DNA of 61,757 bases, counting the filler. It is 7 parts of 7 records of this genome, joined end to end, with 100 filler letters (N's around TTAATTAATTAA, not from the genome) between each part and the next. Parts side by side here need not be neighbours in the genome. Positions count along the whole stretch, not along the records: positions 52,773 to 61,757 come from SRR31156797_4693; 6 more parts are not named here. One strand, given 5' to 3'. The notes below the pieces were generated by a model, which worked only from the letters and a program-made list of their open reading frames with translations, made no database searches and had not been told where the DNA came from. Below, in pieces: positions 33,822 through 61,757 of the stretch. Position numbers and translations under genes: made by a program. How positions within the stretch are numbered: position 1 is the first letter of the stretch; each line of letters opens with the position of its first letter.

Positions 33822-34909
33822 TGTCTTCCTACCTTAAGCGCTACAGTTTCATCAACGCCAAATTGAAGACCAGGACGGACTTTCTTCTGGACGAGGCTTT
33901 TTTCCGCCGCCTGGAAGACCGGCCCAACCTGAACGAAGCCATGATACTGCTGAAGGACACGGTCTACGGGGTCATGCATGCCAGCTATGAACAGACCGGC
34001 GACCTGAAGATGGCCGAGAAGGAGCTCAGGCTGAAGGAGATCGGCTTCTACAGGGAGCTGAAGCGTCACGGTGACGAGCTGCTCTCGGGTTTTCTGGATG
34101 TCCTGCTCCTCAAATTCGATGTGGAGGTCCTGAAGGAGTGGATCCGGCTCTGGTACGACAGCCGCGTCCGGGGGCGGGATGTCAGCGTCCTCAGTCCCTA
34201 TATGATAAGGGAAAAGGTGGTCGAGGATTTTGAGCACGACACCCTTCTGAACTGCTCCGACCCCCAGGCTCTCTACGAGCATCTGGCCAGGGGGGTCTAC
34301 AAAGGGCTCTTTACGGCCCTCCGGGAGAGGGCGGAACCTCTTGAGAGCCTCTACGATCTGGAAAAGTCCCTGGACAGGCTGCGCTTTGCCCGGGTGCTGG
34401 CATACGCCGATGCCTTCCCCCCCGCCGATGCGGATGTGATCCGCCGGATAACGGGAATGGAGATAGACTTTGAGAATATGCTGAGCCTGCTCCGGATGGG
34501 GGATGTCCTGCCGGCGGGAAAACTGCTGGACGACCTGATAGACGGGGGACCGCAGCTGAACCGGGACGGCCTGGGACGGACAAAAGGCGATGGCGATGAT
34601 TCCCGGAAGTCGGAGGCTGAGAAAAGCCGCGAGATAGTCGGCAGCGCCCTGGCCTCCTACGGCGGCATGGGAAGCCTCCTTTTGAAGGAGGAGAGCGGCC
34701 GTGAGGATAAGCTGGCCATGGTTGAGGCGGTTTTGCGGGAGCTGGAGAAGCGGGAGGCCGACCGTCTTATGAGGGGCTCGCCCTTCTCCATCGGCATCAT
34801 GCTCAGTTATTTTATGCGCAAGGAAAGGGAGGCCGCCAGGCTGGTACGGATACTGAACGACCTGCAGTACCGTTCGGACGGCTCCTCCGGACACAGGGGG
34901 ATGTCATGA
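33821..34909 (+). CDS. V/A-type ATPase subunit C (d)
   Basis: YSFINAKLK N-terminus, EIDFENM, PFSIGIMLSYF..KERE C-terminus. Confidence 0.85.
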   Translation: MSSYLKRYSFINAKLKTRTDFLLDEAFFRRLEDRPNLNEAMILLKDTVYGVMHASYEQTGDLKMAEKELRLKEIGFYRELKRHGDELLSGFLDVLLLKFDVEVLKEWIRLWYDSRVRGRDVSVLSPYMIREKVVEDFEHDTLLNCSDPQALYEHLARGVYKGLFTALRERAEPLESLYDLEKSLDRLRFARVLAYADAFPPADADVIRRITGMEIDFENMLSLLRMGDVLPAGKLLDDLIDGGPQLNRDGLGRTKGDGDDSRKSEAEKSREIVGSALASYGGMGSLLLKEESGREDKLAMVEAVLRELEKREADRLMRGSPFSIGIMLSYFMRKEREAARLVRILNDLQYRSDGSSGHRGMS

Positions 34910-36963: not shown

Positions 36964-36964
36964 A

Positions 36965-37321
36965 GTGAATCTGAAACAGAAACTGTCCCTGCATCTGTCC
37001 GTCCGGGTCGTGGTCCTCACGGCGATGATCCTGATCCTGGGCCTGGTGGCCACCGGCAACCTGACGGCCCAGGAGGCCCATGCCGAGGCGCCCGCCGTGT
37101 CCGCCCAGGTCCAGACCTTCGGTCTTATGGCCGCCGCCCTGGCCTTCGCCGCAGCGGCCATCGGCGCGGGCATAGCCATCAGCCATGTGGGCTCTGCCGC
37201 CATGGGCGCCATCGGGGAGAAGCCGGAGATCGCCGGCCAGGCCCTGATCTTCATCGCCCTGGCCGAGGGTATCGTGGTCTTCGGTTTTATCACGGCCCTG
37301 ATGATCCTGGGTAAGATCTGA
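36965..37321 (+). CDS. V/A-type ATPase proteolipid subunit K (c)
   Basis: GAGIA..VGSAAMGAIGEKPE, ALAEGIVVFG with the essential Glu; GTG start after GGAGGT. Confidence 0.93.
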   Translation: MNLKQKLSLHLSVRVVVLTAMILILGLVATGNLTAQEAHAEAPAVSAQVQTFGLMAAALAFAAAAIGAGIAISHVGSAAMGAIGEKPEIAGQALIFIALAEGIVVFGFITALMILGKI

Positions 37322-37370
37322 TCGCGGGGACACCGCGGAAGCGGCTCTCCCCGCAGGAGCATTTGAAGAA

Positions 37371-37676
37371 ATGAAGTATTTCGTTATCGGCGATGAGGAT
37401 ACGGTTCTCGGTTTCGGTCTGGTGGGCGTCACGGGACGCGTCGCCGTGACCGCCGCAGAGGCGGAACAGGCCCTGAACGAGGCCATGGAGGATGCGGATA
37501 CGGGCATCATCCTGATCACCGAACGTCTGGCGGAATTAATACGATCCCTGGTAGACCGGTTTCTGTTTACCAGGCAGTTTCCCCTGATCCTGGAGATCCC
37601 CGACCGCATGGGCCGGGTGGAGGGGAAACCATCCCTGAAAGAAATGGTGAATGATGCAATCGGAATCAAGCTCTGA
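37371..37676 (+). CDS. V/A-type ATPase subunit F
   Basis: VIGDEDTVLGFGLVG, PLILEIP. Confidence 0.93.
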   Translation: MKYFVIGDEDTVLGFGLVGVTGRVAVTAAEAEQALNEAMEDADTGIILITERLAELIRSLVDRFLFTRQFPLILEIPDRMGRVEGKPSLKEMVNDAIGIKL

Positions 37677-38313
37677 ACTGCTGGAAGGCATCCTTGCCGA
37701 TGCCCGGGCCGAAGCGGATAAGCTTGTGGAGCAGGCCCGCACACAGGCCGCCGAGACCCTGGAGAGCGCCCGCGACCGGGCGGCGAAGATCCTGAACGGC
37801 GCCGAGGACGGGGCGGCGAAGCAGGGAGCGGAACTGAAGAAGAACAGCCGCTCCGCCCTGATACTCCTGAAAAGCCGTCACGAACTGAAGAGCGGCCGGA
37901 CGCTGGCCGCCGAGGTGATGCGCCGGGTCCGGATCCGCCTGGAGGAGTTCAGGAAGGATCCCTCCTACCCCGCTCTGCTGGAGGAGCTCCTCATCGAGGC
38001 GGCCCTGGGGCTGGGCGTGTCTGAGGCCTTTGTCAACGGAGGCGAGGCGGAGCGGACGCTCATGGCCCCCGCCCTGCTGGCCCGTGTTGAACGGCGCCTG
38101 AAAGAGGAGTTCGGCGAGAGGATTGCCTTGAGTCTCTCCGGCGATTCCGCCCTGGCCGAACAGGGTGTGGAGCTGAGAGACAGGGAGGGGCGCAGGGCCT
38201 TCAGGAACAGTTTCACCGCCCGCCTGGACCGGAAGGAGCAGCAGGTGAGGGACATCATTGAGTCCCGGCTGCGGGAGGCCGATACGGCGGCATCGGGGGA
38301 GGACAAGGCATGA
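37651..38313 (+). CDS. V/A-type ATPase subunit E
   Basis: N-terminal coiled coil (ILADARAEA), C-terminal GVEL...NSFTARL. Confidence 0.85.
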   Translation: MMQSESSSELLEGILADARAEADKLVEQARTQAAETLESARDRAAKILNGAEDGAAKQGAELKKNSRSALILLKSRHELKSGRTLAAEVMRRVRIRLEEFRKDPSYPALLEELLIEAALGLGVSEAFVNGGEAERTLMAPALLARVERRLKEEFGERIALSLSGDSALAEQGVELRDREGRRAFRNSFTARLDRKEQQVRDIIESRLREADTAASGEDKA

Positions 38314-38699
38314 ACGAACGGATAGCCGGCAGGGTCAGACGGGTCAACGGCCCGGTCATAGAGGCCGCCGAAATCCCCGACGCCCTGATGATGGAGATGG
38401 TCTTCGTCGGCGAACAGAGGCTTGTGGGAGAGGTGATCAAGCTCAAGGGAGAGAGCGCGGTCATCCAGGTCTACGAGGACACCACGGGCATCGCCCCGGG
38501 GGACAGGATCTACGGATCGGGTCATCCCCTGAGCGTGCAGCTCGGCCCCGGCCTGATGGGAACCATCTACGACGGGATTCAGCGCCCCCTGGAGGCCCTC
38601 TACGGCGCTTCGGGGGAGTTTATAGACAAGGGCCTCTCCTTCTCCGCCCTGGCGGAAGAAAAGGAGTGGGAGTTCAGCCCCCTCTGCGCCGAGGGAGAG
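38310..38699 (+). CDS. V/A-type ATPase subunit A, 5' fragment
   Basis: VNGPVI, LVGEVI, QVYEDTTG, LGPGL.GTIYDGIQRPL; truncated at spacer. Confidence 0.95.
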
Positions 38700-38799
38700 N
38701 NNNNNNNNNNNNNNNNNNNNNNNNNNNNNNNNNNNNNNNNNNNTTAATTAATTAANNNNNNNNNNNNNNNNNNNNNNNNNNNNNNNNNNNNNNNNNNNN
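38700..38799. other. Artificial contig spacer
   Basis: N run with TTAATTAATTAA. Confidence 0.97.
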
Positions 38800-39522
38800 T
38801 TTCTTAAGAACCGGAATTGGAATCTCATTGTAATGGAAAATGCTGGCAGCCAGTCCGGCGTCTGCTTGTCCCTTAGTGAAGACATCAACAAAATGATCTT
38901 CGGAACCTGCTCCACCGGATGCAATGATGGGAATTTTTAACATGTTGGCCATTTTAGACAGTTCTGTATTGGCAAAACCATTCTTCGTTCCGTCGTGGTT
39001 CATCGAGGTGAACAAGATCTCTCCTGCTCCACGATCTTCGGCTTCTTTTGCCCACGAAAATAACTCTTTGTCGGTTGGGATACGCCCTCCGTTTACGGTT
39101 ACCGTCCAATGTTCGTTTTGGTCGCCACGGGCATCGATAGCCACAACCACAAACTGACTTCCAAAGTTTAAAGCCAAATCGTCGATTAATCTTGGATTTC
39201 GTACTGCTGATGAGTTGATAGAAATTTTATCAGCCCCGGCAGCCAACAGTTTTTCAGCATCGCTCAATTCACTAATTCCACCACCAACTGTAAAAGGAAT
39301 ATTGATGTGTGCTGCAATTCGTTTTACCAGTTCAACAAAAGTTTTACGACCTTCGTGTGTAGCGGTAATATCTAAAAAACAAAGCTCATCAGCTCCATCA
39401 GCAGCATATTTTGCTCCCAGTTCAACCGGATCGCCCACTTCTTTAATGTCGACAAAATTAATTCCTTTAACGGTTTGTCCGTCCCGGATATCAAGGCATG
39501 GTATTATTCGTTTTGCAAGCAT
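38800..39522 (-). CDS. hisF: Imidazole glycerol phosphate synthase cyclase subunit (3' end truncated)
   Basis: [35 protein letters not shown]. Confidence 0.96.
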
Positions 39523-47997: not shown

Positions 47998-49428
47998 ATG
48001 AATCAATATATTTTAAATACATTATCACAAATGGATAATTTAACATTTTTTGCTTTAGATACTAACTATAAGTATATAGGTTTTTCATCTGAGCATAAAT
48101 TAGTTATGAAAAATATTTGGAATACTGATATCGAAACGGGAATATCTATGCTTACATATATATCTAATAAAACAGATAGGCAAAAAGCAAAAGAGAACTT
48201 TGATAGGGCATTATTAGGGGAAGAATTTATTATCGATGAAGATTATGGAGATAATAGTTATTTTAGAACATTTTGGAGAAATAGTTATCGTCCTATTATA
48301 GATAGTGATAATAATATTGTAGGAGTGCTTGTTTTGGTTACTGAATTAACTGAACAAATAAAAATACAAAATAGATTTAATGAGTTAGAGATATTTGAAA
48401 ATATTATTAACCTTGTCAATGTGGGAGTGACATTAGCTGACCCAAATCAAAAAGATATGCCTTTAGTGTTTGTTAATGATGGATTTACTAAAATGACTGG
48501 CTATTCAAAGGGTGATGTTCTTGGTAAAAATTGTAGGTTTTTAAGGGGTAAAAGCAGATATCAAGAAAATTTAAAAATTGTTAGGGATAGTATCAAAAAT
48601 AAAAAATCATGTGAAGTTGAACTTATCAATTTTAAAAAAGATGGTTCAAAGTTTATTAATCTACTCAATTTATCACCTATTTGTGATAAAAACAATAATT
48701 TAATCTATTATGCAGGTATACAGTTAGATATAACAGATCGAGTAGAAAAAGATAAATTAATCGCTTTAAAAGATATAGCATCAGGATTAACCCATGAGAT
48801 AAATACTGCATTAGTAGCTTTAAAGGGAAATCTTGAAATGTTATCATATGATGTGGCAGAGATAGAGGATTCAAATTTAAAAGATTATATGAATGATTCT
48901 ATTTTAAAAATACGTGAAAGTAAACAAACAATCACAAAAATTGTGAAATCACTTCATTATTTAAATGCTTCTTCTATTAATACAACAGAGAAATTTAATC
49001 TTTTTGAATCATTAAAATATGCAGTAAGTTTATTGGAAGAAAAAGTACAATCAAAAGAGGTTCATATTATTTTTCAAAATATTGATCAAGAAAAAGAGAT
49101 TATTGCTGAAAAAGAATCTATTATACATTTATGGACAATCCTTATAGAAAATGCAATTGATGCAGTTTGTGAAGTTGATCGTAAAAAAGAGATCATAATC
49201 ACAATAAATAAACAGCAACAAGATACTGTAGTCTCAATAGAAGATAATGGTGCAGGAATAGAACCTAGCATTTTAAATGACATTTTTAAACCTCTTACCA
49301 AAGGAAAAGAGTATAGAGGAGTAGGAATAGGGTTAAGTACAACAAAAGTTATAGTTGATACTCATGGATGGGAAATAGATTTTAAAACAAGCAAGAGTGG
49401 TACGATATTTTATGTAACTTTAAAATAA
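47998..49428 (+). CDS. PAS-LOV histidine kinase
   Basis: N-terminal PAS; LOV GKNCRFLRG...NFKKDG...GIQ; H-box THEINT, N-box ENAIDA, DNGAGI, GIGL. Confidence 0.88.
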   Translation: MNQYILNTLSQMDNLTFFALDTNYKYIGFSSEHKLVMKNIWNTDIETGISMLTYISNKTDRQKAKENFDRALLGEEFIIDEDYGDNSYFRTFWRNSYRPIIDSDNNIVGVLVLVTELTEQIKIQNRFNELEIFENIINLVNVGVTLADPNQKDMPLVFVNDGFTKMTGYSKGDVLGKNCRFLRGKSRYQENLKIVRDSIKNKKSCEVELINFKKDGSKFINLLNLSPICDKNNNLIYYAGIQLDITDRVEKDKLIALKDIASGLTHEINTALVALKGNLEMLSYDVAEIEDSNLKDYMNDSILKIRESKQTITKIVKSLHYLNASSINTTEKFNLFESLKYAVSLLEEKVQSKEVHIIFQNIDQEKEIIAEKESIIHLWTILIENAIDAVCEVDRKKEIIITINKQQQDTVVSIEDNGAGIEPSILNDIFKPLTKGKEYRGVGIGLSTTKVIVDTHGWEIDFKTSKSGTIFYVTLK

Positions 49429-49697
49429 CTGACAAAATTTTATTAAATAAAAGATTATTTTATAAATTGAATAAGATGACAAATTTACACTATGAATGAT
49501 TGGAAAAATGGAATAAAATAAAATCATATATACTCAAAAGGGATATTATGAAATCTGCACTACTTAGAGATAAAAGTTTTTTAGGAACTAGAAATTCTTA
49601 TATTATTACCACTACATGTATAATAAGTTTTTTATTGATTTTATATTATTATAAGATTTAATATTTATTAAATATTTACAAAAGTGAGAAAAATATA

Positions 49698-51344
49698 GTG
49701 AAAGATAAAGATTTTAAACAAAAGTTTCAAAAACAGATCTTTAATATTTTAGAACAGCTTTCTCATGGTATAGTGATCACTGACGCTTCTAGTGACAATC
49801 TCATTTTATATGTAAATAAAGCTTTTAGTGACATTTTTGGATACTCCTCTTGTGAATGTATTGGTCAAAATTGTAGATTTTTGCAACAAGATGATAGGGA
49901 TCAAGAAAATCTTCACTCAGTACGTACTGCAATACAAAATAAAACACCTATTCAAACTGTTTTAAGAAACTACACAAAAGATGGAAAGCTCGTTTACAAT
50001 GACGTAAAAATCACACCAATTTTTAGTGCTGATACAAATGAAGTGGAATATTTTATAGGGATACAAAAAGATCTCTCCGATAGACATTTAATAAAAAGTA
50101 GTATTTTAGAAAAAACGAAAGAAAATTTTTCTTCAAAAGATTATGAAGTGTTATTACAAGAGCTTAGTATCTATCAAACGGAGATCTTGGCTCAAAATGA
50201 TGAACTTATTATCAGAGATAGAAGACTAGAGACTTTAAATCAAGAGTTTTCTTCCCTTTTTCAAGATGCTCCTATTGCCTATTTAGTAATAGATAAGAAT
50301 CTAGAGATTAAAAGATACAACAAAGTTGCGGATGAGTATTTTCATTTTTCAAGTTTTAAAACTCTTAAAACACTTTTTCCTATCATAAAAGAGCAAAATT
50401 TAGAAAAACTAATTGCATGGCTATCAACAAGTGAATATAAAAAAAGTAACTTAGAGATAGATATTTTATGTGAAAATAAAAAAATATCGAATAGATTTGA
50501 GCTTCATGCAAAAAATTATGTGATCGATCCAGAGTTTTTATTGATCTCATTAAATAATATTCAAGAGTCCTATGAGATCAAAACAATGTTGGAGAAAAAA
50601 GTTGAGGAGGAGCTCGCTAAAATCATAGAACAAGAAAAGTTTATCCTCAATCAAGCAAAATTTGCATCAATGGGTGAAATGATCGATGCTATTGCTCATC
50701 AATGGCTAAATCCACTTTCAAGTATAAAACTTTTTACACAAGTAAATAAGATGGAATTAAAGGATTTAAAAAAAGAAAAAAAGAACTTTGTATCAATGAT
50801 CTCACGACTAGAAAAAACTGAAGAGCATATTAACCATCTTGTAGATACTTTACAAGAGTTTCGTTCATTTTTTAGACCAGATGAAAGCTTTGAAGAGGTG
50901 TATATCAGTGATATTGTAGAGTCATGCTTAACTTTAATGAAAGATGAACTTATTAAAGCCACCATTGAAATAGATATTCAACAAGATGAAAACTTTAAAA
51001 TAAAAGTGATAAAAAACCAGTTTAAACATGTTTTTATAAATCTTCTTTCTAATAGTAAAGATGCATTTGAAGAGAATAGTATCAAAAAAAGAAAGGTCTC
51101 ATTTAGGTATTACAGTGATGAAAAATATTATATTGTTGAATATCAAGATAATGCAGGTGGAATACCTCAAAATGTAATTGAAAATATTTTTGAAGCAAAT
51201 TTTACAACAAAAGAAAAAGGTACTGGGATAGGATTATATTTATCGAAACAGATATTAGATAAATTTAATATCTCTATGGATGTAAAGAGTGAAAATAGTT
51301 TCTCTTATTTTACTATCAAGTATGCGAAAACACTTAATATTTAA
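49698..51344 (+). CDS. LOV-PAS histidine kinase
   Basis: GQNCRFLQ...NYTKDG...GIQ; H-box AHQWLNPL, NSKDA, DNAGGI, GTGIGL; GTG start. Confidence 0.9.
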   Translation: MKDKDFKQKFQKQIFNILEQLSHGIVITDASSDNLILYVNKAFSDIFGYSSCECIGQNCRFLQQDDRDQENLHSVRTAIQNKTPIQTVLRNYTKDGKLVYNDVKITPIFSADTNEVEYFIGIQKDLSDRHLIKSSILEKTKENFSSKDYEVLLQELSIYQTEILAQNDELIIRDRRLETLNQEFSSLFQDAPIAYLVIDKNLEIKRYNKVADEYFHFSSFKTLKTLFPIIKEQNLEKLIAWLSTSEYKKSNLEIDILCENKKISNRFELHAKNYVIDPEFLLISLNNIQESYEIKTMLEKKVEEELAKIIEQEKFILNQAKFASMGEMIDAIAHQWLNPLSSIKLFTQVNKMELKDLKKEKKNFVSMISRLEKTEEHINHLVDTLQEFRSFFRPDESFEEVYISDIVESCLTLMKDELIKATIEIDIQQDENFKIKVIKNQFKHVFINLLSNSKDAFEENSIKKRKVSFRYYSDEKYYIVEYQDNAGGIPQNVIENIFEANFTTKEKGTGIGLYLSKQILDKFNISMDVKSENSFSYFTIKYAKTLNI

Positions 51345-51382
51345 TTAGAGAAATATAAAAATTATAATATAGGAGCCCGTAT

Positions 51383-52651
51383 TTGAATTCCAAAAGAAGA
51401 TACGAACAAAATAAGCAAGAGCTTATAGAAATAATCAATGACGATACTTTAACAGCATCACAAAAGCTAGATAAATTAAACTTTTTAGAAGTGTTAAGTA
51501 ATCTAGAGGTTTATCAAACAGAACTAAGTGCACAAAATAAAGAGCTTATTGATAAAGAATACCAATTGATCGAAGCAAGAGATGAATTTCAAGAGCTTTT
51601 TAATTTTGCACCTATTGCTTATTTACAGCTTGATGAAAACTTTAAAATATTAAAATATAATACTTTTGCATATGAATTGCTAAATCAAAAGAGTATCTCT
51701 TTGAAAACAAAAGACCAGCTAAATGTTTATATTCATAGAGATGGTATGATGGAGTATATTGATTTTATTACTCAAACAAAAGAGTTACAAAAGCATGATG
51801 GAGTATTGAAGTTTATTAAAGATGATAATATATTATATGGTAGAGTAAATATAAATAGTTATAAAAAAGATGGTGTGGTTTATTATTTGTTATCAATAAT
51901 CAATATAACAAAAGAGATAGAACAAGAAGCAATAATATTAAATCAAGCAAAACAAGCTGCTATGGGTGAGATGCTGAGTATGATCACTCATCAATGGAAA
52001 CAACCTTTATCTATTCTTTCCTCTTTAAGTTCTGGTTTACAGTTACATCTTGATCTTAATCAGTACGATAAAGAGAGTTGTAATCATTTTGCAGAAGATA
52101 TGTTAGATCAAATAGAATATATGAGTGAAACAATTGATGACTTTAAAAACTTTTTTAGTAAAGAAAGAGCTAAATCAAAGATTTATATAAAAGAGTGCAT
52201 TGATAGGTCAATTAAATTTACGGTACCTGCTTTAAAAAAGCATATGATAGAGTTGAGTGTCGTTTATAAGGGTGATGACAACTATCTGATATTAGCTTAT
52301 AAGCATGATGTATGTCAAGTTTTGATGAATATTATTAATAATGCAAAAGATGAACTTATCAAAAAAGATATAGAAAGAAAAATAGAGCTTGAAATCTCTA
52401 CTGAAAATGATATGGTGATTTTAGCAGTTAAAAATAATGGTGGAATGATTTCTAATGAAATCATCAATAATATTTTCGAACAACATTTTACTACAAAAGC
52501 CGATAAAACTGGAAGTGGTTTGGGGCTTTATATCTCTAAGATGATTGTTGAAGAACATCTTGGAGGAAGTTTAAATGTTGAAAATATTCCAAGTGAAGAG
52601 AGTGTAGTATTTTCTTTAAAAATACCTTTTATTGTAGATAAGTTAGTCTAA
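51383..52651 (+). CDS. PAS histidine kinase
   Basis: H-box THQWKQPL, NNAKDE, NNGGMI, GSGLGL; TTG start after AGGAG. Confidence 0.88.
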   Translation: MNSKRRYEQNKQELIEIINDDTLTASQKLDKLNFLEVLSNLEVYQTELSAQNKELIDKEYQLIEARDEFQELFNFAPIAYLQLDENFKILKYNTFAYELLNQKSISLKTKDQLNVYIHRDGMMEYIDFITQTKELQKHDGVLKFIKDDNILYGRVNINSYKKDGVVYYLLSIINITKEIEQEAIILNQAKQAAMGEMLSMITHQWKQPLSILSSLSSGLQLHLDLNQYDKESCNHFAEDMLDQIEYMSETIDDFKNFFSKERAKSKIYIKECIDRSIKFTVPALKKHMIELSVVYKGDDNYLILAYKHDVCQVLMNIINNAKDELIKKDIERKIELEISTENDMVILAVKNNGGMISNEIINNIFEQHFTTKADKTGSGLGLYISKMIVEEHLGGSLNVENIPSEESVVFSLKIPFIVDKLV

Positions 52652-52772: not shown

Positions 52773-52802
52773 CCGGGGGTTCGAATCCTCCCTGGCGCAC
52801 CA
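52773..52802 (+). tRNA. tRNA 3' end (T-arm, acceptor strand, CCA); likely attL, identity possibly Arg
   Basis: CCGGGGGTTCGAATCCTCCCTGGCGCACCA; anticodon not in the window. Confidence 0.85.
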
Positions 52803-52850: not shown

Positions 52851-52872
52851 TACTTTTGCGCAGACTTGCTTT

Positions 52873-52892
52873 TTTGCTCCAAATTTGCTCCA
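52873..52892 (+). repeat. Tandem direct repeat, candidate integrase arm-type sites
   Basis: TTTGCTCCA at 52873-52881 and 52884-52892, between att site and integrase start. Confidence 0.55.
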
Positions 52893-52918
52893 CTCATAGT
52901 AAGAAAGGAGCAACTACA

Positions 52919-53908
52919 ATGGCGAGCATCCGCAAGCGTGGCCCCTATCAATGGGAAGTCCGAGTCCGCAAAAAAGGCTACTCCACCCAATCAAAGACAT
53001 TCTCCAAGAAAGCTGACGCCGACGAGTGGGCGCGCGAGATCGAGTCTGAAATGACACGTAGCGTGTTCATATCCCGCAAAGAGGCTGAATCCACCACGCT
53101 CGACGACGCACTGGAACGCTTCAAAGAGGAGTTCCTCCCGAAGTATGCCCAACCAAAGCAGATGAAGAGTCGGATTAACGTTCTGCAAAAGCATGACATA
53201 TGTGAAATGACGCTAGCCGCAATACGGGGAAAGGATGTTGCCAGCTACATCAAAGACCGCGAAGACGAGGGACGCTCCTCGCAGACCATCCTGCACGAAG
53301 TCAACTTACTATCACGAATCTACGAGACCGCCCGAAAAGATTGGGGGATGGAATCTTTGAGAAATCCCACAAGGCGAGTCAACAAGCCCAAACAAAACAA
53401 AGGCCGAACTCGAAGGCTTGAAAAAGGTGAAGAGAAAAAGCTCCTCAAGAAAGCGCCAGAAGACCTGAAACCAATCATCCTCTTCGCCCTAGAGACGGCC
53501 ATGAGGCGTGGCGAGATAGCAATGATGCGCTGGGAGCATGTTGATCTGAAAAAACGCTACGTCCATCTACCCAAGACGAAAAACGGCGAAGCGCGGTCTG
53601 TTCCGCTCTCCCTTGCGGCCTTGAAAATACTCAAGGACTTGCCCCGGCAGATTAAGGGAGACGTTTTTCTTTTGATGGCCGACACCATCACCAAAAAGTT
53701 CACGACAGCCGTAAAAAACGCAGAGCTAAAAAACTTGCGCTTTCACGATCTGCGCCATGAGGCCACCAGCCGTTTGTTTGAGAACACGGACCTGGACTTT
53801 ATGGAAGTAAAAGCGATAACGGGGCATAAGAGTATGCAAATGCTGGCTAGGTATAGCCATTTGAGAGCGCATAAGTTGGCGGATAGATTAGATGGGGCAA
53901 AACGATAA
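52919..53908 (+). CDS. int: Tyrosine recombinase/integrase (Rci/HP1-like)
   Basis: MASIRKRG arm domain; TAMRRGE, TKNG, FHDLRHE, TGHKS..ML.RYSH; ATG after AAGGAG. Confidence 0.93.
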   Translation: MASIRKRGPYQWEVRVRKKGYSTQSKTFSKKADADEWAREIESEMTRSVFISRKEAESTTLDDALERFKEEFLPKYAQPKQMKSRINVLQKHDICEMTLAAIRGKDVASYIKDREDEGRSSQTILHEVNLLSRIYETARKDWGMESLRNPTRRVNKPKQNKGRTRRLEKGEEKKLLKKAPEDLKPIILFALETAMRRGEIAMMRWEHVDLKKRYVHLPKTKNGEARSVPLSLAALKILKDLPRQIKGDVFLLMADTITKKFTTAVKNAELKNLRFHDLRHEATSRLFENTDLDFMEVKAITGHKSMQMLARYSHLRAHKLADRLDGAKR

Positions 53909-54023: not shown

Positions 54024-55508
54024 TCAAAGCATTTCATCTACTATCCACTGTTTGGTGGTTTCATCGATATCAGAATATCCAAGCGCTTGGGCAAAATGTA
54101 AGTAAATAAAGATATCAAATAGACTTCTATCATTATTCTTAAAGTCGAAACCAGACAGCAAAGGCGAAAATAAATTGCTAGGGTTTTTTACAATCTCTTC
54201 AAAAGAAGATACAAATTGACGCATATCCGGAATTTTAACACTCGTATCAAAAATAAATTTTGCAAAATCAGCTACGAGAGGCCCATGTCCCGATCTAGCA
54301 AAATCAATAAATATATCTCTATCTCCCAGCAAAACATTGCCTAGGTGCAAGTCTCCATGAATAACTGTACTAGTGTATTTGATTATACTTTCTGTTGCGG
54401 GACTTTGCTCACGGTTCACTACTGATTTAACAAGATCTATCTTTTTCAAATTTTGTTTTAAGGAAACACGCAAAGAATCTGATGAAAACCAGTTGCTAAC
54501 GACATCAAATAGCAGATCCTCTTTTTGACAGAAGTTGTCAGAAACATAAAAATCGTGAAACAAATCTTGAAGCCTTGCCGATGAATCAGAAAAACTTTTT
54601 GAATTATCAATTGTTCGTGATGCGACGTCTGCACCTGAAGCAAATTGATATCCAATTGCAGCACATTCATTTACTTTGATCGCATGTGAATACATCAATG
54701 GTAAGGACCTGGCATATTCCAATCCACAACTATAAAACATATTTCTGTGCGCCTGGGATTCTTGATGCAACTTATATGGATTCGCAGACAACTTCACGAA
54801 CCAGCGATTATTAGTACTAATATCTTTATAGGTCGTTATAGCATTTACTTCCAGAGTAAACGCGCCTGAAAAACCTCCAGATATATTCTGAACACTAACA
54901 CGTTGCGCAAAATAGAATAGATAATTGAACAGGATACGCCAGGATGGAGTTTTATCGTCGAGTAAGTTTTCTAAACTCTTACAGACTACAAAATCCAACT
55001 TATGATCCTGCTTGAAGTGATAATGACCTATCGCACTTTCAAGACGTCGCAAGTGTGCTCGCTTACAAATCCCATTCCAATAATCTTGATTGAATGTGTT
55101 TGAACTAACGACATGTTTTTCCAAGTGACCATCAAACCCAAAGCCACCACCTATACCTACAAAATAGAGTTCTTCCTTATTAAAAAGTTGTGACACAGCA
55201 ACTACAGGCAACCATGGAGCTGCATCACGCAGATATGGAAGGACAGCACTACCTCCTAACAAATCATCAGCTAGATATCCGAATGCATTTTTAGGTGTGT
55301 TGGTAAGCTCAAGATCAATAAGCGCTAGGTCATAATCATTTAAATCATCCTTTTCGGGCAGGATGGACAACACGTAATCAAGATCATTGTCCTCTGGACA
55401 TATAAAATCAATTTGTGGTTTTAATCCAATAGTCTCAAGTTCACGCTTGATCATAGGCAGTACATTAGGCTGATCATCAATTAGAAGAATACGATTAGAA
55501 GATATCAT
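54024..55508 (-). CDS. Receiver domain fused to an APH/protein-kinase-like phosphotransferase
   Basis: REC: ILLIDD, ALIDL, VAVS, HLEK. Kinase: GGFSGA loop, WFVK, HGDLHLGN, IDFA. Confidence 0.75.
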   Translation of the reverse strand: MISSNRILLIDDQPNVLPMIKRELETIGLKPQIDFICPEDNDLDYVLSILPEKDDLNDYDLALIDLELTNTPKNAFGYLADDLLGGSAVLPYLRDAAPWLPVVAVSQLFNKEELYFVGIGGGFGFDGHLEKHVVSSNTFNQDYWNGICKRAHLRRLESAIGHYHFKQDHKLDFVVCKSLENLLDDKTPSWRILFNYLFYFAQRVSVQNISGGFSGAFTLEVNAITTYKDISTNNRWFVKLSANPYKLHQESQAHRNMFYSCGLEYARSLPLMYSHAIKVNECAAIGYQFASGADVASRTIDNSKSFSDSSARLQDLFHDFYVSDNFCQKEDLLFDVVSNWFSSDSLRVSLKQNLKKIDLVKSVVNREQSPATESIIKYTSTVIHGDLHLGNVLLGDRDIFIDFARSGHGPLVADFAKFIFDTSVKIPDMRQFVSSFEEIVKNPSNLFSPLLSGFDFKNNDRSLFDIFIYLHFAQALGYSDIDETTKQWIVDEML

Positions 55509-55510
55509 AA

Positions 55511-58500
55511 CTACCTCTCAGATGTGCTCTTTTGCAATTCCCCAACAATTGGGAAAGAAATCGACAATGATTTTGTGTCTGAATCAGAATCAAACCTAGT
55601 GACGCTTAAATCACACCCATACGCTGAACAAAATCTTCTTATTATCCTAAGTCCACCTTCGCTTTGTGTATCAATATCTGACTTAATATTGTCAACAACT
55701 TCGATAATTACATCAGAGGCTGTTCGTTTAAGAGTAAATGTTGCTTTGACATCATTTGTTTGAGATTCTCCGTGCCGTTGTAGGTTCGAGATAATCTCCT
55801 CACAAACATGATTAAGCTTATCAAAATCACAAATAACTAGGGGCACAGAAAAATCCCTAATCAATTCGATATTTATTGGTTTTTTATAAGAGTAGGATCT
55901 TAAATCGCTATAATCCTGACTAAAAAGAATTGACTTTGGCAAATAAACAATAAGATCTTTTAATAAATTTCTTAGAGAAGCAATTGATGTTTTAATTTTG
56001 TCTACTTGTTGCAGCAATTCTTCAACATTAACAGCGAGGCCTACGCTTATAAGCTCAGACAATGTCGCAACATGCTTCTCAAGCATGTCAACTTGCGTTT
56101 CAAATGATGGGTGGTGCTTAGAAAAAGAGCTATATAAATTGGAACCAATTATATTGTGCAAAAGCTCTGGGAAATCGTCTGCATACCAACCAGAATAAAC
56201 ATCATTAGCTTTTTTCAACAAACCATCAATATCTGAATCGTCCCTATTATAAGCATCAAAGAATTCTTGAACTGAAAATGTAAGAATACCACTCCTGACA
56301 AACCTAATATACAAATGAGCCAACGAAGTTATTGCAGCATCACTCACACTGTTACGAGTTTTACTGCTATCTGACAGTATATCATAAGTTGACTTCAATG
56401 TTTCATACGATGAGTCGCTGGCAGAATCTTTCCACTTAGTGAGACTTTCAACAAATGAAGGAGGTAGCAAATTAAGTTTTAAAAGTCCCAAACATGTTTC
56501 TTGAACATCTCTATCTGAACCAATATTTTTTGATATCAAAGATACGGCGGAATGAAAAAATTGCCGAGGATTTATTGCTATAAATGCATTTATGTATTTT
56601 CCAACAGGACAACTTTTGGAACTACGTGTCATCAACTCCAGAACACGCTCCTGCAATCTAGGATAAGCCTTATAAAGTCTTTTTTGAATATTTTTAGTGG
56701 AAAAAATAGAATTATAATATTCAAAAGAATACAACTCAAGAAATCGGTCTATCAAATTAACATCATTCAAAAGAGCTTTATTTAGAGCATTTCTATTAAC
56801 TAAAACAATATCTGATGACTCATAAAGACAGTGTAAGTATGCTCTGTCGAGGCTGTTCGCAGTCAGTTGTGGTGCATTACCAAACTTCAAAAGACTATAA
56901 TCAATGACTTCGACATTTAAAGATTTAATCTTGTTATTAAGAAACTTAACAAGACAATTATCACTAACTGAATTTTTTCGAACAAGATTTAAAATTTGTT
57001 CAAGACATTGCACTTCGGTACACAAAGGGCACCTTGAACTCTCGTAATACGACATCACTGGGAAGTCTATAAAGTATGAAGGGTGAAAATTTGCTCCTTT
57101 GTATCGGTCGATATTACTAAAAAAATTTACATGATCGTGTTCCATTCGCGAAACCAAACACAAAACAGATAAGTCCTCAGGAGCATACCTGGACACATAC
57201 TCAATTGCTCGTCTAACATAATGTCCGCTCGAAATTGCAGGTAAAACAAGGATACACCTGCTGAAAGACTGTTTCGGCGGGGGAGGTGCATTTAAATCTT
57301 TGTCACTAATTTCTTGAATACTTTTCTGTAGATCAAATTTTGCAACGCTAGACCGTATAAAATTCAGGCTCTTATCAGGGTTATAAACAAAAAATCCCCA
57401 AACATCTTCCTTGTTTGTATGAGGCTTTTTCAGCCTCAGAAATTCAATTTGCTTCTTTACCCACTGTTCAATTTCATTTTTCATCCCATAAAAGAGCTTC
57501 GGAAAATCCAAGAACATCGTGTAATGTTTGGAATTATATTCCAAATGACCATGAAGTAATGAGCCAGACTGTTTCACATACGTATATATTAACTTCTTAA
57601 TATCAACTTTTGGTTTGATCTCTCGCTTGTGAAGCGTTGGCAAATTAGTCTTAGCATCTATAAGCTTCACGGATTCATATGTTTTCTTAGTCGATTTCAA
57701 GTCGCACGGCAAATCACGTTGGGGATTAATTTGATCCTTTACCACTGAAGATAATTTTACAAACTCATTCTTTCCTTCTACACCTGTATTAAATTTCCCA
57801 GGTATATACTCGGCACGTGAATCGACAACAGCAATAATTCGGTCAATATTTGTATTAACGATGCTTTTAAGTAGTTTTTTTAACTGATCACCTCGGCATA
57901 TAACGTCTGTTATAACGACATTCTTCTTTCCAGCGTATTTGACAAGCTCAGGTATTACTTTGTGAACACTATAAGGGTACTTAAATTCACAATAACCTAC
58001 ATCTTTCCCACGATTTTTGAACTCACCGAGTACTTTAGTACAAAGAGGTTCAAGTGCTGAAGACGCTGATATTAACAACTCGATGTCTTCAGGCAGTTGT
58101 AGGTATATCCATTCAGACAATCTCTGAATGAGCATATGGCACTTCATGGCAGACGTGATTTTGTAAAATTTTTCAGTGTAATACAAGCCTTCGATCAAAA
58201 AGGGGCCATCAGTATCAAGTATCAAGTCAGATGTTATACCATCTCTAATCTGCCCCTGAGTGCCATTTAGATACTCCTCAAGCAGGCTGTTATAATAACT
58301 ATCTTTTATGCTCAGTAATCCATTATCGTTGACATCAAAATATGTATATACAGATTCAACATGTGCGCCTATTGCTACAAAATCATTATCTATAACATCA
58401 CCGACAACGACAGCCATCCCAATACTACGTAAAGACTCTCTTAAATCCGGATCTTCATATAGCGACAGAGCCCGTCTGTTTGCCCAAACAATTACCCTTT

Positions 58501-59788
58501 TCCCTTTATGCAACAGCTGCAAACCAGCTAAGCAAACAGCAAAAGCTCTAGCCGTTAAAGGACTTTTGGGTTGTAATAGCAAATCAACGCCCTCAATATC
58601 TTTTACGCTATTATAGGCGAGTTGAACTCTTCTGAGAGCGTTATCAACATCATCAACATAATCATCGCCAAAAAAAAGATACTTAAACGGGTCATATGCG
58701 CGTATATCAATATTTTTACTCACAGTAGTTGCTGGTGGTATATATTTATTCTGTGCAACCAAATTTAAGGGCAATCTAAGAATAAAATGCGTACCAGGCA
58801 ACTTCGCCAACTTTGATTTTATTAAATCTTTTTTATTAGTTGCATACATTTGCCCTTTATATCTATAGTAATCGATTCCCAAAATTGCTTCTGGTGTTCT
58901 AACAATAACTTGACCACACGCCTTTCGTGCAACTTGAAGTGAAAAATACAATCCTGAAGCAACTTGATCTAAGCTAATCTGATCTCCTTTTAACAAGGCA
59001 TTAATACGTTCTTTTCTTGCGACTTCATCGCTAGTACTAAAGGCTTCAAATGCGTAAGATAGAATCCTTTCTTCTTTTAAAAGTCCGTTTTTGGTCACCA
59101 AAAAAGACTCATAATCATCAGGGACAAACGATCTTATCTTTTCGTTAATACCAGGACCATTATCCCCAATAACAATTTCAATATATTCTGTTCCAGCTTC
59201 AAATACGGTAGTAAAGCCCTTTCTATTTGATGACTTACTAGATGAAATTGCATATGACGCAGCATAATATGGAATATTACCCTGACCGTGAATGAAAGCA
59301 TTTTCAGAAATTTCCTGAAATGCAACTCCAAAAAAATCTTTAATCTTTTCCTTATAAACACCACCGATTTCCGGAATGTTATTGAAATTCGCTAACAGGT
59401 CGGCCGAATGCGATTTTATTTCCCTTTTGGAATTAATGATTGTGATCGGGACGCCTTTTTCCGGAGCGCCTCCTAGCCTGAAATCCGACTTCACCCCTAG
59501 CGAGACCAGCTTTTCCTGAAAACCATATTTTATCCACACCTTATGGAACTGTGAAGCCATCTTTTGAATCGGAGGCATCTCAAAACGGACTCTCACATCG
59601 CGTTTCAACATACTAGCCACCCAAGAAAACAAAAGCGATGCAGGGTGAAAACCAATCCATTCAACATACTTAAAGTCTAAAACAACCGAAGCACTACCCT
59701 GACTGACTGAATAATACCTAGAGAGAATCTCCTCTACGGCACCAACTGTTAATACACTAGGAAGATTAATTTTTTTTGATTTACGCAT
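55511..59788 (-). CDS. 1425-aa multidomain protein: STAS-like / HATPase / PRTase-like x2 / helical / degenerate HATPase
   Basis: VVLDFKYVEWI; EISENAFIHG, IGDNGPGI, SGL, PGT; VVITDVICRG..IAVVDSR; LVLPAISSG..LCLVSR; CPLC; EEIISNLQRHG..VVDN..GGLRII. Confidence 0.7.
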   Translation of the reverse strand: MRKSKKINLPSVLTVGAVEEILSRYYSVSQGSASVVLDFKYVEWIGFHPASLLFSWVASMLKRDVRVRFEMPPIQKMASQFHKVWIKYGFQEKLVSLGVKSDFRLGGAPEKGVPITIINSKREIKSHSADLLANFNNIPEIGGVYKEKIKDFFGVAFQEISENAFIHGQGNIPYYAASYAISSSKSSNRKGFTTVFEAGTEYIEIVIGDNGPGINEKIRSFVPDDYESFLVTKNGLLKEERILSYAFEAFSTSDEVARKERINALLKGDQISLDQVASGLYFSLQVARKACGQVIVRTPEAILGIDYYRYKGQMYATNKKDLIKSKLAKLPGTHFILRLPLNLVAQNKYIPPATTVSKNIDIRAYDPFKYLFFGDDYVDDVDNALRRVQLAYNSVKDIEGVDLLLQPKSPLTARAFAVCLAGLQLLHKGKRVIVWANRRALSLYEDPDLRESLRSIGMAVVVGDVIDNDFVAIGAHVESVYTYFDVNDNGLLSIKDSYYNSLLEEYLNGTQGQIRDGITSDLILDTDGPFLIEGLYYTEKFYKITSAMKCHMLIQRLSEWIYLQLPEDIELLISASSALEPLCTKVLGEFKNRGKDVGYCEFKYPYSVHKVIPELVKYAGKKNVVITDVICRGDQLKKLLKSIVNTNIDRIIAVVDSRAEYIPGKFNTGVEGKNEFVKLSSVVKDQINPQRDLPCDLKSTKKTYESVKLIDAKTNLPTLHKREIKPKVDIKKLIYTYVKQSGSLLHGHLEYNSKHYTMFLDFPKLFYGMKNEIEQWVKKQIEFLRLKKPHTNKEDVWGFFVYNPDKSLNFIRSSVAKFDLQKSIQEISDKDLNAPPPPKQSFSRCILVLPAISSGHYVRRAIEYVSRYAPEDLSVLCLVSRMEHDHVNFFSNIDRYKGANFHPSYFIDFPVMSYYESSRCPLCTEVQCLEQILNLVRKNSVSDNCLVKFLNNKIKSLNVEVIDYSLLKFGNAPQLTANSLDRAYLHCLYESSDIVLVNRNALNKALLNDVNLIDRFLELYSFEYYNSIFSTKNIQKRLYKAYPRLQERVLELMTRSSKSCPVGKYINAFIAINPRQFFHSAVSLISKNIGSDRDVQETCLGLLKLNLLPPSFVESLTKWKDSASDSSYETLKSTYDILSDSSKTRNSVSDAAITSLAHLYIRFVRSGILTFSVQEFFDAYNRDDSDIDGLLKKANDVYSGWYADDFPELLHNIIGSNLYSSFSKHHPSFETQVDMLEKHVATLSELISVGLAVNVEELLQQVDKIKTSIASLRNLLKDLIVYLPKSILFSQDYSDLRSYSYKKPINIELIRDFSVPLVICDFDKLNHVCEEIISNLQRHGESQTNDVKATFTLKRTASDVIIEVVDNIKSDIDTQSEGGLRIIRRFCSAYGCDLSVTRFDSDSDTKSLSISFPIVGELQKSTSER

Positions 59789-60060
59789 ACAATCCCTAAC
59801 GCTTTAAGATTATATATTTCGTGAGGCCTACTCACTACTTTGCGGTAACTTTTAACACTCCACGCAATACGACAATCACATACTTCTTATGCGTATAATT
59901 CAACACGCAGTACATCTCTAAAATATATTTGTCAAAAAATTCGATATTTTCTATAATACTATTCTGACATATCCAAACTTAATCCAAACTTTACCTCTAC
60001 ATAGTCAAACCCTACTCATCCATTCTCTAACTTAAAGTTCTAATTTTGCACCGATATCTG

Positions 60061-60090
60061 TTGACCTTACAACTGTAGATGGTTTAAATT
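60061..60090 (+). promoter_or_regulatory. Candidate sigma70 promoter for the structured RNA/recombinase unit
   Basis: TTGACC (60061-60066), 18 nt, TAAATT (60085-60090), just before the hairpin-rich region begins. Confidence 0.4.
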
Positions 60091-60099
60091 TAGACAAAT

Positions 60100-60700
60100 T
60101 ACTCGATTCATTGAATCGTTTAAGACGACGGATGCGCTAAAGCTGACATTTTGGTCGATCAGCAACGCCGGGAGATCTCCCAGAAGCATCAGATACCCGC
60201 GATTTATCGCCGGCTCTTGGTCACTTAGCTGTCAAACCCTGTGGCCAGTCCTCTGAACGGCAAAGTCTAGCCGCGACGGGGCGGGGCTAATATTAGCCCG
60301 CCGGAGATTGACCACCTCTTTTGGACCGATGTTCCTTTTAGCGCCCCCTAGGTGTAGTGCGTCTAAAAGCCAGAACCAGCGTCCGCCAGCTTCCAATCAC
60401 ATATTACTAGATTGCAGCACACACTTTCTTTTGAGGTGTGCGTCTGTCTCTTTATCCTATGGAGAAAGAGACGGACGGCGGATCGCGTTACTACCGTTAC
60501 TCTTCCATGACGATGAGAAAACTACGGCCGAACTACGGCGGCCAAACACCTCCTCCTGGGTACGCCCAGGTTGCACGACCACCCCTAGCTCTCTGCTCGG
60601 AGACCAGTCTTACGAGGCTGGCTAGATGCTAGGGGGAGCATCCACAGATGCCGGTTACGACCCGCAAAACTGAGATGCAATGGTCATTTTCACTTAACGA
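60100..60700 (+). ncRNA. Putative large structured non-coding RNA / 5' leader of the recombinase
   Basis: More than a dozen hairpins and nested helices, three TACG-capped stems, G-T pairs on the + strand; no credible ORF. Boundaries approximate. Confidence 0.6.
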
Positions 60701-60715
60701 CCCCGGAGGTAGAAA

Positions 60716-61519
60716 ATGGATTTGCGATACCAAGCGGCAAAACTGTTGGGGAAAAACAGACGGGCTGGGGTGTTAACTCAGCAAAAAAATGCCGGGCAGG
60801 TGCGGAGACTCTGCGATATCATTCAGGACAAATACGCCCTTCAGAACATCCGCCACCTTAAGACGAAGCACATTCTGGGGGCTATTGAAGACTTGAAGTC
60901 TCAAGGCCTCGGCTCCTCAACTCTGGCTTCATACGCCACAGCTGCGCGTCGCATCGCCGAGGCTATCGATAAGCAAAATATTGTTCCCCGAACCAATAAG
61001 GAGATGGGGATAAGTCGTGCTGGCGACAGGTTGAAGCCAGTTACTGCCAACATGAACAAAATTCATGATGTGACAGCCCTGCTTTATGAAAAAGAAAAAT
61101 GGTTGGGATTAGCGGCTGAGATGCGTGAGCAATTTGGCCTTAGGGCAAAAGAATCGCTACTTTCGCATGAAGAGAAAAACGGCACATTGATTGTTAAAGG
61201 TAGCAAAGGAGGACGCCCCCGACAGGTTCCAATACGCAATGAGTCTCAACAAGAACTTGTTGAGCGAGTAAACGCCTATATTCATCGCAACGAACGAACC
61301 TCGTTAATCCCTACAAACCTGTCATTAAAACAGGCTTTAAAAAAGCAAGCGAACACGCTGCAGAGACTAGGTGCGACCAAAGATAATAAAGCTCACGCCC
61401 ATGCCGCGCGGCACGAGTATGCTCAACGTTTAGCTAGCTCTGGGAAAAGTCGGTCAGACATCTCCGAGGAATTAGGACACGGCAGGAGAGAGGTGGTTTC
61501 ACATTACGTTGCAAGCTAA
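60716..61519 (+). CDS. Compact tyrosine recombinase (SAM-like N-domain plus catalytic domain)
   Basis: FGLRAKES (R), GSKGGRPR (K), HAARHEYAQ (HxxR), ELGHGR..VVSHY (H, Y); GGAGGT RBS. Confidence 0.88.
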   Translation: MDLRYQAAKLLGKNRRAGVLTQQKNAGQVRRLCDIIQDKYALQNIRHLKTKHILGAIEDLKSQGLGSSTLASYATAARRIAEAIDKQNIVPRTNKEMGISRAGDRLKPVTANMNKIHDVTALLYEKEKWLGLAAEMREQFGLRAKESLLSHEEKNGTLIVKGSKGGRPRQVPIRNESQQELVERVNAYIHRNERTSLIPTNLSLKQALKKQANTLQRLGATKDNKAHAHAARHEYAQRLASSGKSRSDISEELGHGRREVVSHYVAS

Positions 61520-61525
61520 ACTTGA

Positions 61526-61635
61526 TCGCCACCCTCTTAAGGCGAAGTTCTCAGTAGGGCCGCATCTTACACAACCCTACTGAGATCACCGCCACAAGGG
61601 GCACCTGCCATCGTCCTTAGGACAAGCCCCCGGTG
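61526..61635 (+). other. Structured 3' flank of the recombinase gene
   Basis: TCGCC/GGCGA; TCTCAGTAGGG (61549-61559) / CCCTACTGAGA (61575-61585); nested CACCG/CGGTG, GGGGC/GCCCC, GTCC/GGAC. Confidence 0.55.
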
Positions 61636-61755
61636 CTAAGCATCATACTTTATACGCTTCACGACGTTAAACTGGGTGCATTTGCGTTTAAAAGCATCAG
61701 CAGCATCTTTTTCGCCGAAGCCAACGACAGATGTGGGTTCACTTTGTTGGACCAC
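61636..61755 (-). CDS. C-terminal fragment of a convergent hypothetical protein
   Basis: Open minus-strand frame from the window edge, VVQQSEPTSVVGFGEKDAADAFKRKCTQFNVVKRIKYDA, to TAG at 61638-61636. Confidence 0.4.
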   Translation of the reverse strand: MVQQSEPTSVVGFGEKDAADAFKRKCTQFNVVKRIKYDA

Positions 61756-61757
61756 TG

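Follow-up and report, generated by a model that had tools for sequence, protein, structure and literature searches.

The DNA analysed in this work (the window, 61,757 nucleotides (nt) at its full length, made up of seven parts joined end to end) carries on its + strand, close to its 3' end, a gene for a 267-amino-acid (aa) tyrosine recombinase, and the stretch directly before that gene, 60097-60715, is, as judged from its sequence, a large structured RNA. The guanine-plus-cytosine (GC) content changes from 0.31 to 0.50 at about 60050. The features of the RNA and its gene are listed here; A3 denotes an alignment, and R1 and R2 denote covariance models, which are described below.

60061-60090, +: candidate sigma-70-like promoter, TTGACC-18-TAAATT (alternatively TTGACC-17-TTAAAT); consensus scan 9/12
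60097-60375, +: 5' domain with a predicted multi-branch fold, specific to the window clade; model R2, A3 helices 2-11 covary
60336-60368, +: hairpin whose conserved CUAGGUG loop is the complement of CACCU at 60547-51; A3, RNAalifold
60376-60435, +: variable insert found in the window and L024 only; gapped in L089, L090 and L091
60436-60700, +: 3' half of the RNA, shared across the family; scores 288 bits in the window with model R1
60441-60477, +: family-wide hairpin with the near-invariant core GUCUCUUU/AAAGAGAC; pattern scan and alignments
60512-60538, +: two A-rich repeats, AAACUACGG and GAACUACGG, single-stranded in the consensus; conserved in A3
60547-60556, +: anti-Shine-Dalgarno pyrimidine stretch CACCUCCUCC, at the 5' border of the 3' domain; invariant in A3
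60555-60570, +: YNMG hairpin 1, UACG loop; helix 17, 3/6 pairs covary, YNMG in 8/10 relatives
60604-60621, +: YNMG hairpin 2, UACG loop; helix 20, 6/7 pairs covary, YNMG in 8/10 relatives
60647-60668, +: YNMG hairpin 3, UACG loop at 60656-59; helix 22, 5/7 pairs covary, YNMG in 7/10 relatives
60687-60700, +: UUUUCACUUAACGA, which contains the family-wide ACACUYAAC-type motif; once in the window at 0 mismatches
60705-60709, +: Shine-Dalgarno (SD) sequence GGAGG of the recombinase gene; read from the sequence, with predicted pairing to 60549-53
60716-61519, +: simple tyrosine recombinase, 267 aa; PF00589 38.9 bits, PF12835 37.8 bits

Homologues of the recombinase formed 81 clusters in the protein collection. 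Pattern scans with the recombinase alignment yielded 22 genome loci and 59 metagenome loci, to which a search of one genus added more; a pattern scan of genome contigs with the single recombinase protein gave no match. The closest relatives, with 66-76% protein identity to the window recombinase, were L024, L089/L092, L090/L093 and L091/L094, and A3 comprises five sequences, the window and these relatives, with an RNAalifold consensus of 130 pairs. Model R1 was built on window 60436-60700 (the 3' half of the RNA, 64 pairs), R2 on the 5' domain (60097-60375), and R3 on the last 223 positions upstream of mostly Geobacter-like relatives whose recombinases are 33-38% identical to that of the window. 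Covariation was measured against 500 column shuffles and against consensus partners slid along the alignment.

The fold of window 60097-60715 is under selection. The sequence-only reading of this region had named a lack of covariation among its grounds for refutation, and covariation was found: 93.6% of the cells in A3 form standard pairs, and 51 of the 130 pairs change on both sides, as compared with 21.9 +/- 3.2 in column shuffles (0/500 as high) and 6-11 with slid partners. For the distant type, represented by 29 R3 matches in an alignment that was fitted to the model, every pair (53/53) has changes on both sides. There the paired cells make up 92.0%, compared with 58.3% after shuffling and 32-40% with slid partners. 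None of the 500 shuffles reached any of five covariation measures for A3 or for the 29-sequence alignment, and across both alignments slid partners paired in 32-45% of cells versus 92-94% for the structure. The consensus fold of the Geobacter-like relatives has compensatory changes in 28/79 pairs.

The + strand also folds better than chance, as the same reading had expected, with -216.4 kcal/mol against -185.4 +/- 6.9 for shuffles (z -4.5, 0/100 as good). The strand asymmetry predicted with it did not appear: the minus strand is low as well (z -3.9), so that folding energy alone cannot choose the strand, and the minus-strand consensus fold has an energy similar to that of the + strand. A further argument, from wobble pairs that are G-U on the + strand and A-C on the minus strand, proved weak and failed its control at helix-flanking positions. 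Inside helices with Watson-Crick covariation the ratio of G-U to A-C was 36 to 8, and at flanking positions it was 6 to 20, which is the pattern expected from folding-program bias.

The strand was instead called from the tetraloops, which would read CKNR on the opposite strand, and from the constant orientation of the RNA with the gene. The loops of hairpins 1-3 are YNMG in 8, 8 and 7 of 10 window-type sequences and in 25, 20 and 21 of 29 distant-type sequences, where about 6% of random tetraloops would be expected to fit, and the stems of the three hairpins vary freely. YNMG is a named RNA loop motif in the accessible part of PMC2346598. Together, the compensatory changes, the YNMG loops kept on varying stems and the fixed position and orientation before one recombinase family bear out the central claim of the sequence-only reading, that the + strand is selected to fold as RNA.

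All helices described in that reading were found in the sequence, as follows.

60131-35 / 60186-90, +: helix GATGC/GCATC
60199-210, +: helix GCGAT..ATCGC
60284-99, +: palindrome GGGCTAATATTAGCCC
60336-68, +: hairpin arms TTTTAGCGC/GCGTCTAAAA
60441-53/60465-77, +: 13-bp stem
60555-70, +: hairpin CCTGGG-TACG-CCCAGG
60604-21, +: hairpin CCAGTCT-TACG-AGGCTGG
60653-62, +: hairpin GGT-TACG-ACC
60577-81/60681-85, +: helix GACCA/TGGTC

Covariation in A3 backs most of the helices. For GACCA/TGGTC, proposed as the closure of the 3' domain, the letters are present, but the pairing competes with a long-range helix between A3 columns 292-300 and 653-661. The putative middle-domain helices GTCCGCC/GGCGGAT, CAATC/GATTG and GCACAC/GTGTGC sit in the insert common only to the window and L024. 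The 60336-68 hairpin is missing from the RNAalifold consensus and re-forms with different stem letters in 4/5 sequences; its YAGGYG loop is conserved, and RNAalifold pairs that loop with A3 columns 520-526 (helix 13).

Motifs of the 3' half recur across the family. The ACACUYAAC-type motif was found in 47/50 loci, within 130 nt upstream of the recombinase match and 25-115 nt before the start codon. The A-rich repeats AAACUACGG and GAACUACGG recur in L002, L025 and L030. The counterpart of the CACCUCCUCC pyrimidine stretch in the distant type is CCCUCC, and both CACCUCCUCC and CCUCCUCC, which lies at the same edge of the 3' domain, presumably resemble the 3' end of 16S rRNA. The exact GUCUCUUU/AAAGAGAC pattern of the family-wide hairpin was present in 16/100 loci, a tally that includes several copies of the same place. 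Variants of the core, for example GUCACUUGC/GCAAGUGAC, differ from it in a compensatory manner; covariation is seen in the outer stem too, and loop length ranges from 3 to 40 nt.

The near-invariance of this inverted-repeat core (60441-77) invites another explanation, in which conservation would chiefly reflect sites in the DNA, either an operator or sequences for recombinase binding or crossover, much as plasmid resolution systems have upstream of the gene, and the RNA fold would be secondary. Homologues do occur on small plasmids and may plausibly serve there as resolvases. On plasmid pSIO1 (L099 1920-1936) the 11-nt TTTTCACTTAA stands in the opposite orientation immediately before the start codon of a 27%-identical homologue, and on pHS-Rec (L100 2465-2473) ACACTTACC stands about 25 nt before the start codon; this placement means that the motif may also be read as DNA. 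The core sites of tyrosine recombinases have a fixed spacer of 6-8 bp, whereas the spacing of the inverted-repeat arms runs here from 3 to about 40 nt. The core hairpin moreover shows compensatory changes, covariation extends to more than 50 other pairs, and the YNMG loops are retained, neither of the last two being needed by DNA sites. A reading as DNA sites is accordingly held to be highly improbable. The gene-free stretches upstream of the homologues on pSIO1 and pHS-Rec measure 568 and 749 nt, and R1 gave no match below E 0.09 on either plasmid, whose homologues are 27-29% identical.

Searches against known RNA families were negative. In the whole window, Rfam 15 gave 0 matches at or above gathering thresholds; at E<=10 the only match within 59900-61757 was a spurious one to mir-1276 downstream of the gene, and the upstream regions of 10 related loci gave no match. 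Nothing thus points to the ribozyme or intron that had been suggested. Group II intron domains (RF02001, RF01998) were observed at L003 1476-1764, about 1.2 kb upstream of the recombinase gene of that Geobacter-type locus. The literature search found no description of this RNA, which supplements may list among unnamed candidates. Small open reading frames (ORFs) in the region (105 aa, 64 aa and shorter), whose conservation would have spoken for coding, are not conserved, and their coding potential was rejected on account of frame-shifting indels and 1-4 stops in relatives. The proposal of a large non-coding RNA holds as far as size and structure are concerned; the RNA is contiguous with the recombinase mRNA, however, and a free-standing status is not supported. 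It is taken to be at least a leader because of that contiguity, because the + strand has no terminator-like site from 60090 to 60716, and because the anti-SD stretch is conserved.

The limits of the module were visible in comparisons with relatives. DNA similarity among the closest relatives is limited to 60100-61520, that is, to the RNA and the recombinase, which are the only unit common to them. Two metagenome contigs match the window from 60098 to about 61182 and about 61422 with ~93-94% identity and have a different left flank, and L024 aligns a similar TTGACT..ATTATT at the promoter candidate. Searches of plasmids with 60050-61757 by blastn gave no match, and a DNA search of 61 relatives of the nearest genome gave one 31-nt match, at chance level. 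Window 47.8-61.7 kb is absent from the nearest genome, so that no empty site could be derived.

Full-length R1 matches on the + strand were found upstream of recombinase homologues in 11 sources (the window and 10 further loci), and on the minus strand the palindromic hairpin alone matched. R2 matched window 60097-60375 and six other clade members, with no match outside the window clade among the 46 sources searched. R3 matched in 45/74 sources, always on the + strand and with its 3' end at the start codon, and R1-type and R3 matches together place the RNA in 56/74 sources, always on the strand of the gene; several of the loci are copies of one contig, and these counts are not independent. Among the 18/74 sources that lack a match, four have <135 nt of contig upstream, three hold gene fragments only, and eight carry homologues at 25-31% identity; L003, L029 and L033 have no model match, and the hairpin or the ACACTCAAC motif is visible there by eye. 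The Geobacter-like relatives (33-38% identity) share 500-1060 nt of upstream similarity among themselves. By these comparisons only the 3' half of the RNA (about 265 nt) is family-wide, and the 5' 280 nt are specific to the clade. In Geobacter-type loci (A6 columns 114-151, e.g. L014 about 2575-2610) the conserved hairpin is closely preceded by another, which has a T-run and resembles an intrinsic terminator; this suggests that the RNA of those loci starts there, about 400 nt before the gene.

Within one genus, R1 was found in 6/42 genomes as a single copy each. In five cases the gene comes directly after the RNA; the remaining copy (L105 1172-1712) is decayed, its RNA ending ~50 positions short and giving way to a fragment of an IS3-type transposase, with the recombinase absent. 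This bears on the idea of an independent functional RNA (a ribozyme, or a trans regulator of the host or element) whose position reflects shared transcription only. Its large multi-branch fold and conserved single-stranded motifs, which belong to no known family, would suit such an RNA. It is nevertheless never found apart from the gene except in that one truncated remnant, it is single-copy, it matches no intron or ribozyme family, and its 3' end borders on the SD in every R3 match, which makes independence improbable.

The recombinase itself has the fold and the conserved catalytic residues of its superfamily. Its PF00589 score of 38.9 bits compares with a cut-off of 27.1, residues R143, K164, H229, R232, H255 and Y264 are invariant in 34 homologue sequences, and by Pfam and fold search it has two domains and no arm-binding domain. 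The AlphaFold model had a predicted local distance difference test (pLDDT) score of 92.5, and Foldseek returned XerH (5jjv) as the best fold match, with IntI4, XerA, Tn1549 Int and Cre also among the best. Scores against NCBIfam equivalogs lay far under their cut-offs (XerA/integron integrase 31 bits against 220, XerC 25.3 against 335). Downstream of its stop codon a 10-bp hairpin, CTCAGTAGGG..CCCTACTGAG, without a T-run, was observed at 61548-61583. A convergent ORF, of which the 3' end is seen at 61639-61757 (-), runs off the window; the convergent neighbour in G238, G272 and G363 is an NYN-domain (RNase-like) protein, and the 39 residues visible in the window gave no match to it. In G272 (L094 6451-8398) the NYN-like gene matches in two pieces, with ~1.2 kb between them that holds a 376-aa ORF without a Pfam match.

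That IntI4 is among the fold matches recalls integron attC sites, and the + strand could in principle fold as single-stranded DNA during transfer or replication, since hairpins and G-T pairs are possible there. The stability of YNMG/UNCG loops is a property of RNA, though, the structure includes the SD and anti-SD, and the score under the Xer/integron-integrase model is the low one given above (31 bits, cut-off 220). Single-stranded DNA is for these reasons regarded as an extremely improbable basis for the conserved fold.

The preferred interpretation, held tentatively and at somewhat under an even chance, is that the RNA is a cis-acting leader, transcribed with the recombinase gene, which controls the amount of recombinase by gating its translation. 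Window 60097-60715 would be transcribed with the gene as a single structured 5' leader, in which the conserved CCUCCUCC, where the 3' domain begins, would pair with the SD. Folding of the 3' domain, whose three hairpins are capped by YNMG loops, would keep CCUCCUCC and the SD together, so that translation would be off by default. The ribosome site might be freed by a competing pairing, for which the CUAGGUG loop of the 5' domain is the candidate in the window clade, or alternatively by a bound factor. Control would be autogenous if the recombinase reads the ACACUYAAC motif and the GUCNCUU hairpin, which is near-invariant. It is the most economical candidate factor, since no other protein travels with the RNA; another possible reader would be a universal host component or a small ligand.

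A cis-acting translational gate is favoured because of the missing + strand terminator noted above and because of three observations on pairing. The SD pairs with CCUCCUCC in the minimum-free-energy structure or the ensemble in 4/6 full-length leader folds of the window clade. In the consensus fold of the distant type (A6), the 3' domain is closed by a helix of CCCUCC and GGAGG. Across leaders, pairing of the SD-to-AUG segment was stronger with its own upstream stretch than with those of 26 others (mean -14.0 against -12.7 kcal/mol; mean rank 9.9, 14 expected), and 3/5000 permutations were as good.

Several points weigh against this interpretation. The permutation test just given ignores relatedness and shared GC content, and the unconstrained best SD partner was no better than in shuffled upstream sequence in most loci (z -3.8 to +1.3). 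In L090 an SD cannot be recognised and occlusion is not seen, and the SD of L104 has a different pairing partner. None of the public runs of RNA type holds the sequence, and the 5' end, processing and co-transcription are inferred. Finally, leaders that occlude a ribosome site are usually far less elaborate, and an RNA-protein machine would account equally well or better for a leader of 400-650 nt with >10 helices and invariant motifs.

The RNA-recombinase module sits in a genomic island, which begins in the window with the following two features.

52773-52802, +: left end of the island, where 30 nt match exactly the end of the tRNA-Arg repeat (47 nt) of G238; sequence comparison
52856-53908, +: second, larger integrase, IntA, 350 aa; PF00589 89 bits

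The tRNA itself is not visible at the left end because the bases just upstream read N in the window. IntA is 82% identical to the integrase adjoining tRNA-Arg(TCT) in G238, a Pseudodesulfovibrio-type genome, where the 47-nt direct repeat (L092 668-714 and 12021-12067) bounds an 11.3-kb island with the RNA-recombinase module. The genes between the two recombinases are wholly different between the window and G238, and G272 has the same backbone as both. The host DNA around the island has ~26-38% GC, and this, with the identity of IntA to that of a Pseudodesulfovibrio-type genome, implies that the island backbone crossed distant hosts. Distant members of the family have one of three settings: some are preceded by tRNA-Arg and followed by primase-helicase genes, others are followed by a second integrase and a tRNA, and others again are carried by small Rep3 plasmids. 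In many mobile elements the recombinase is thus a second or accessory one. L026 (about 38-200) and L027 are ~3.2-kb contigs with three ~52-nt iteron-like direct repeats, a Rep3 initiator and the RNA-recombinase module, and are probably complete small plasmids carrying little else.

A serious though unlikely alternative to the cis-acting gate is that the RNA, either intact or after processing of the leader, works jointly with the recombinase: it would bind the protein as a scaffold, directionality factor or guide and help to choose or assemble the recombination sites, in a manner like that of bridge/seek RNAs with IS110 recombinases. RNA and recombinase are the sole conserved unit across islands, integrative elements and Rep3 plasmids, the RNA is of great size and complexity, and its GUCNCUU hairpin and ACACUYAAC motif are near-invariant down to 33-38% protein identity. 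The recombinase is of the simple two-domain kind without an arm-binding domain, and the RNA lies in the 5' non-coding stretch by the recombinase gene, as it does in IS110 according to the accessible parts of PMC11208160 and PMC11208158. Guide tests, however, gave no support: complementarity between the RNA and the 47-nt attachment (att) repeat of G238 was no better than in shuffles, and comparison with the adjacent tRNA-Arg in 6 loci gave no consistent match of >=9 nt, with one 10-mer in one locus. These tests covered the G238 att and the tRNA-Arg genes, which need not be the sites of this recombinase. The larger integrase beside the tRNA can account for integration of those islands, and the anti-SD/SD pairing favours a role in cis. 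In its most specific form, considered rather doubtful, the recombinase would be the first tyrosine recombinase to act as a ribonucleoprotein. The leader would be processed to a stable RNA of ~300-600 nt, bound via the GUCNCUU hairpin and ACACUYAAC and scaffolding or directing recombination, and its variable parts (such as the clade-specific 5' domain) would set site choice or directionality.

Other parts of the window were noted in passing. The island cargo (54024-59788, -) consists of two large genes of ~35% GC between backbone parts of ~50% GC, one encoding 494 aa with TCAD9 and APH kinase-like matches and the other 1425 aa with a C-terminal HATPase_c domain. From these domains the two look like a conflict or defence pair, and PADLOC gave no match for the genes of 54024-59788. 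The G238 cargo at the same place encodes a 1507-aa AAA protein (weak PDC-M54A/LmuA matches) and a pentapeptide-repeat protein. Just before the island, 47998-52651 (+) holds three consecutive PAS/HisKA/HATPase histidine-kinase genes of 26-29% GC. A block of ~62% GC at about 33200-39500, in a window otherwise of 26-40% GC, is probably another foreign insert.

Complex, strongly covarying large bacterial RNAs are rare, and several have proved to be ribozymes or parts of RNA-protein machines. The RNA described here is tied to one small tyrosine recombinase family on genomic islands, integrative elements and plasmids in several phyla, and has no counterpart in Rfam 15. If it acts as a switch, mobile elements gate this recombinase in an unusually elaborate way, and the signal sensed would be worth finding. 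If it is a cofactor, the recombinase would be the first RNA-dependent tyrosine recombinase and of interest for genome engineering, and as a ribonucleoprotein it would bring RNA-assisted recombination, so far a matter of the IS110 family, to the largest superfamily of recombinases. RNA and gene together measure only 1.4 kb, and cultured carriers are indicated by the names of the records and sources: Geomonas propionica Red259, Geotalea sp. SG265 and Pseudodesulfovibrio profundus.

As regards known systems, the recombinase shares with XerH, XerA, IntI4 and Cre the two-domain fold (Foldseek probability 1.00; query-normalised template-modelling (TM) score 0.60 to XerH 5jjv) and the full R, K, H, R, H, Y set. 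It differs from them in its identity of 13-21%, in NCBIfam scores far under the cut-offs, and in its occurrence on islands and plasmids beside other integrases. Like the bridge (seek) RNA of IS110/IS1111 as presented in the available parts of PMC11208160 and PMC11208158, the window RNA is structured, lies in the 5' non-coding stretch of a recombinase gene and is co-conserved with it. Unlike IS110, the protein matches PF00589/PF12835 only, and not the DEDD/Tnp pair (PF01548 + PF02371) by which IS110 is recognised; the window RNA is 3-4 times longer and shows no guide-like complementarity to the G238 att or the adjacent tRNA-Arg. In the accessible part of a 2026 review (PMC13604230), tyrosine recombinases are still regarded as RNA-independent.

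With SD-occluding leaders and riboswitch platforms the window RNA has in common its cis position, the conserved pyrimidine stretch that is predicted to pair with the SD, and an alternative partner in the 5' domain. Among leaders that occlude the ribosome site are those of transposase mRNAs such as IS200. The window RNA is an order of magnitude larger, with three conserved YNMG hairpins and invariant motifs, and, unlike that of riboswitches, its downstream gene is a recombinase rather than a metabolic gene, from which no ligand can be inferred. OLE, GOLLD, ROOL and HEARO/omega RNA, large structured bacterial RNAs of unknown or recently solved function, differ in that their Rfam models miss the window and the ten loci and in that the window RNA is fused to the ribosome-binding site of one gene; they resemble it in being 400-650 nt long, multi-branched, strongly covarying and tied to mobile elements.

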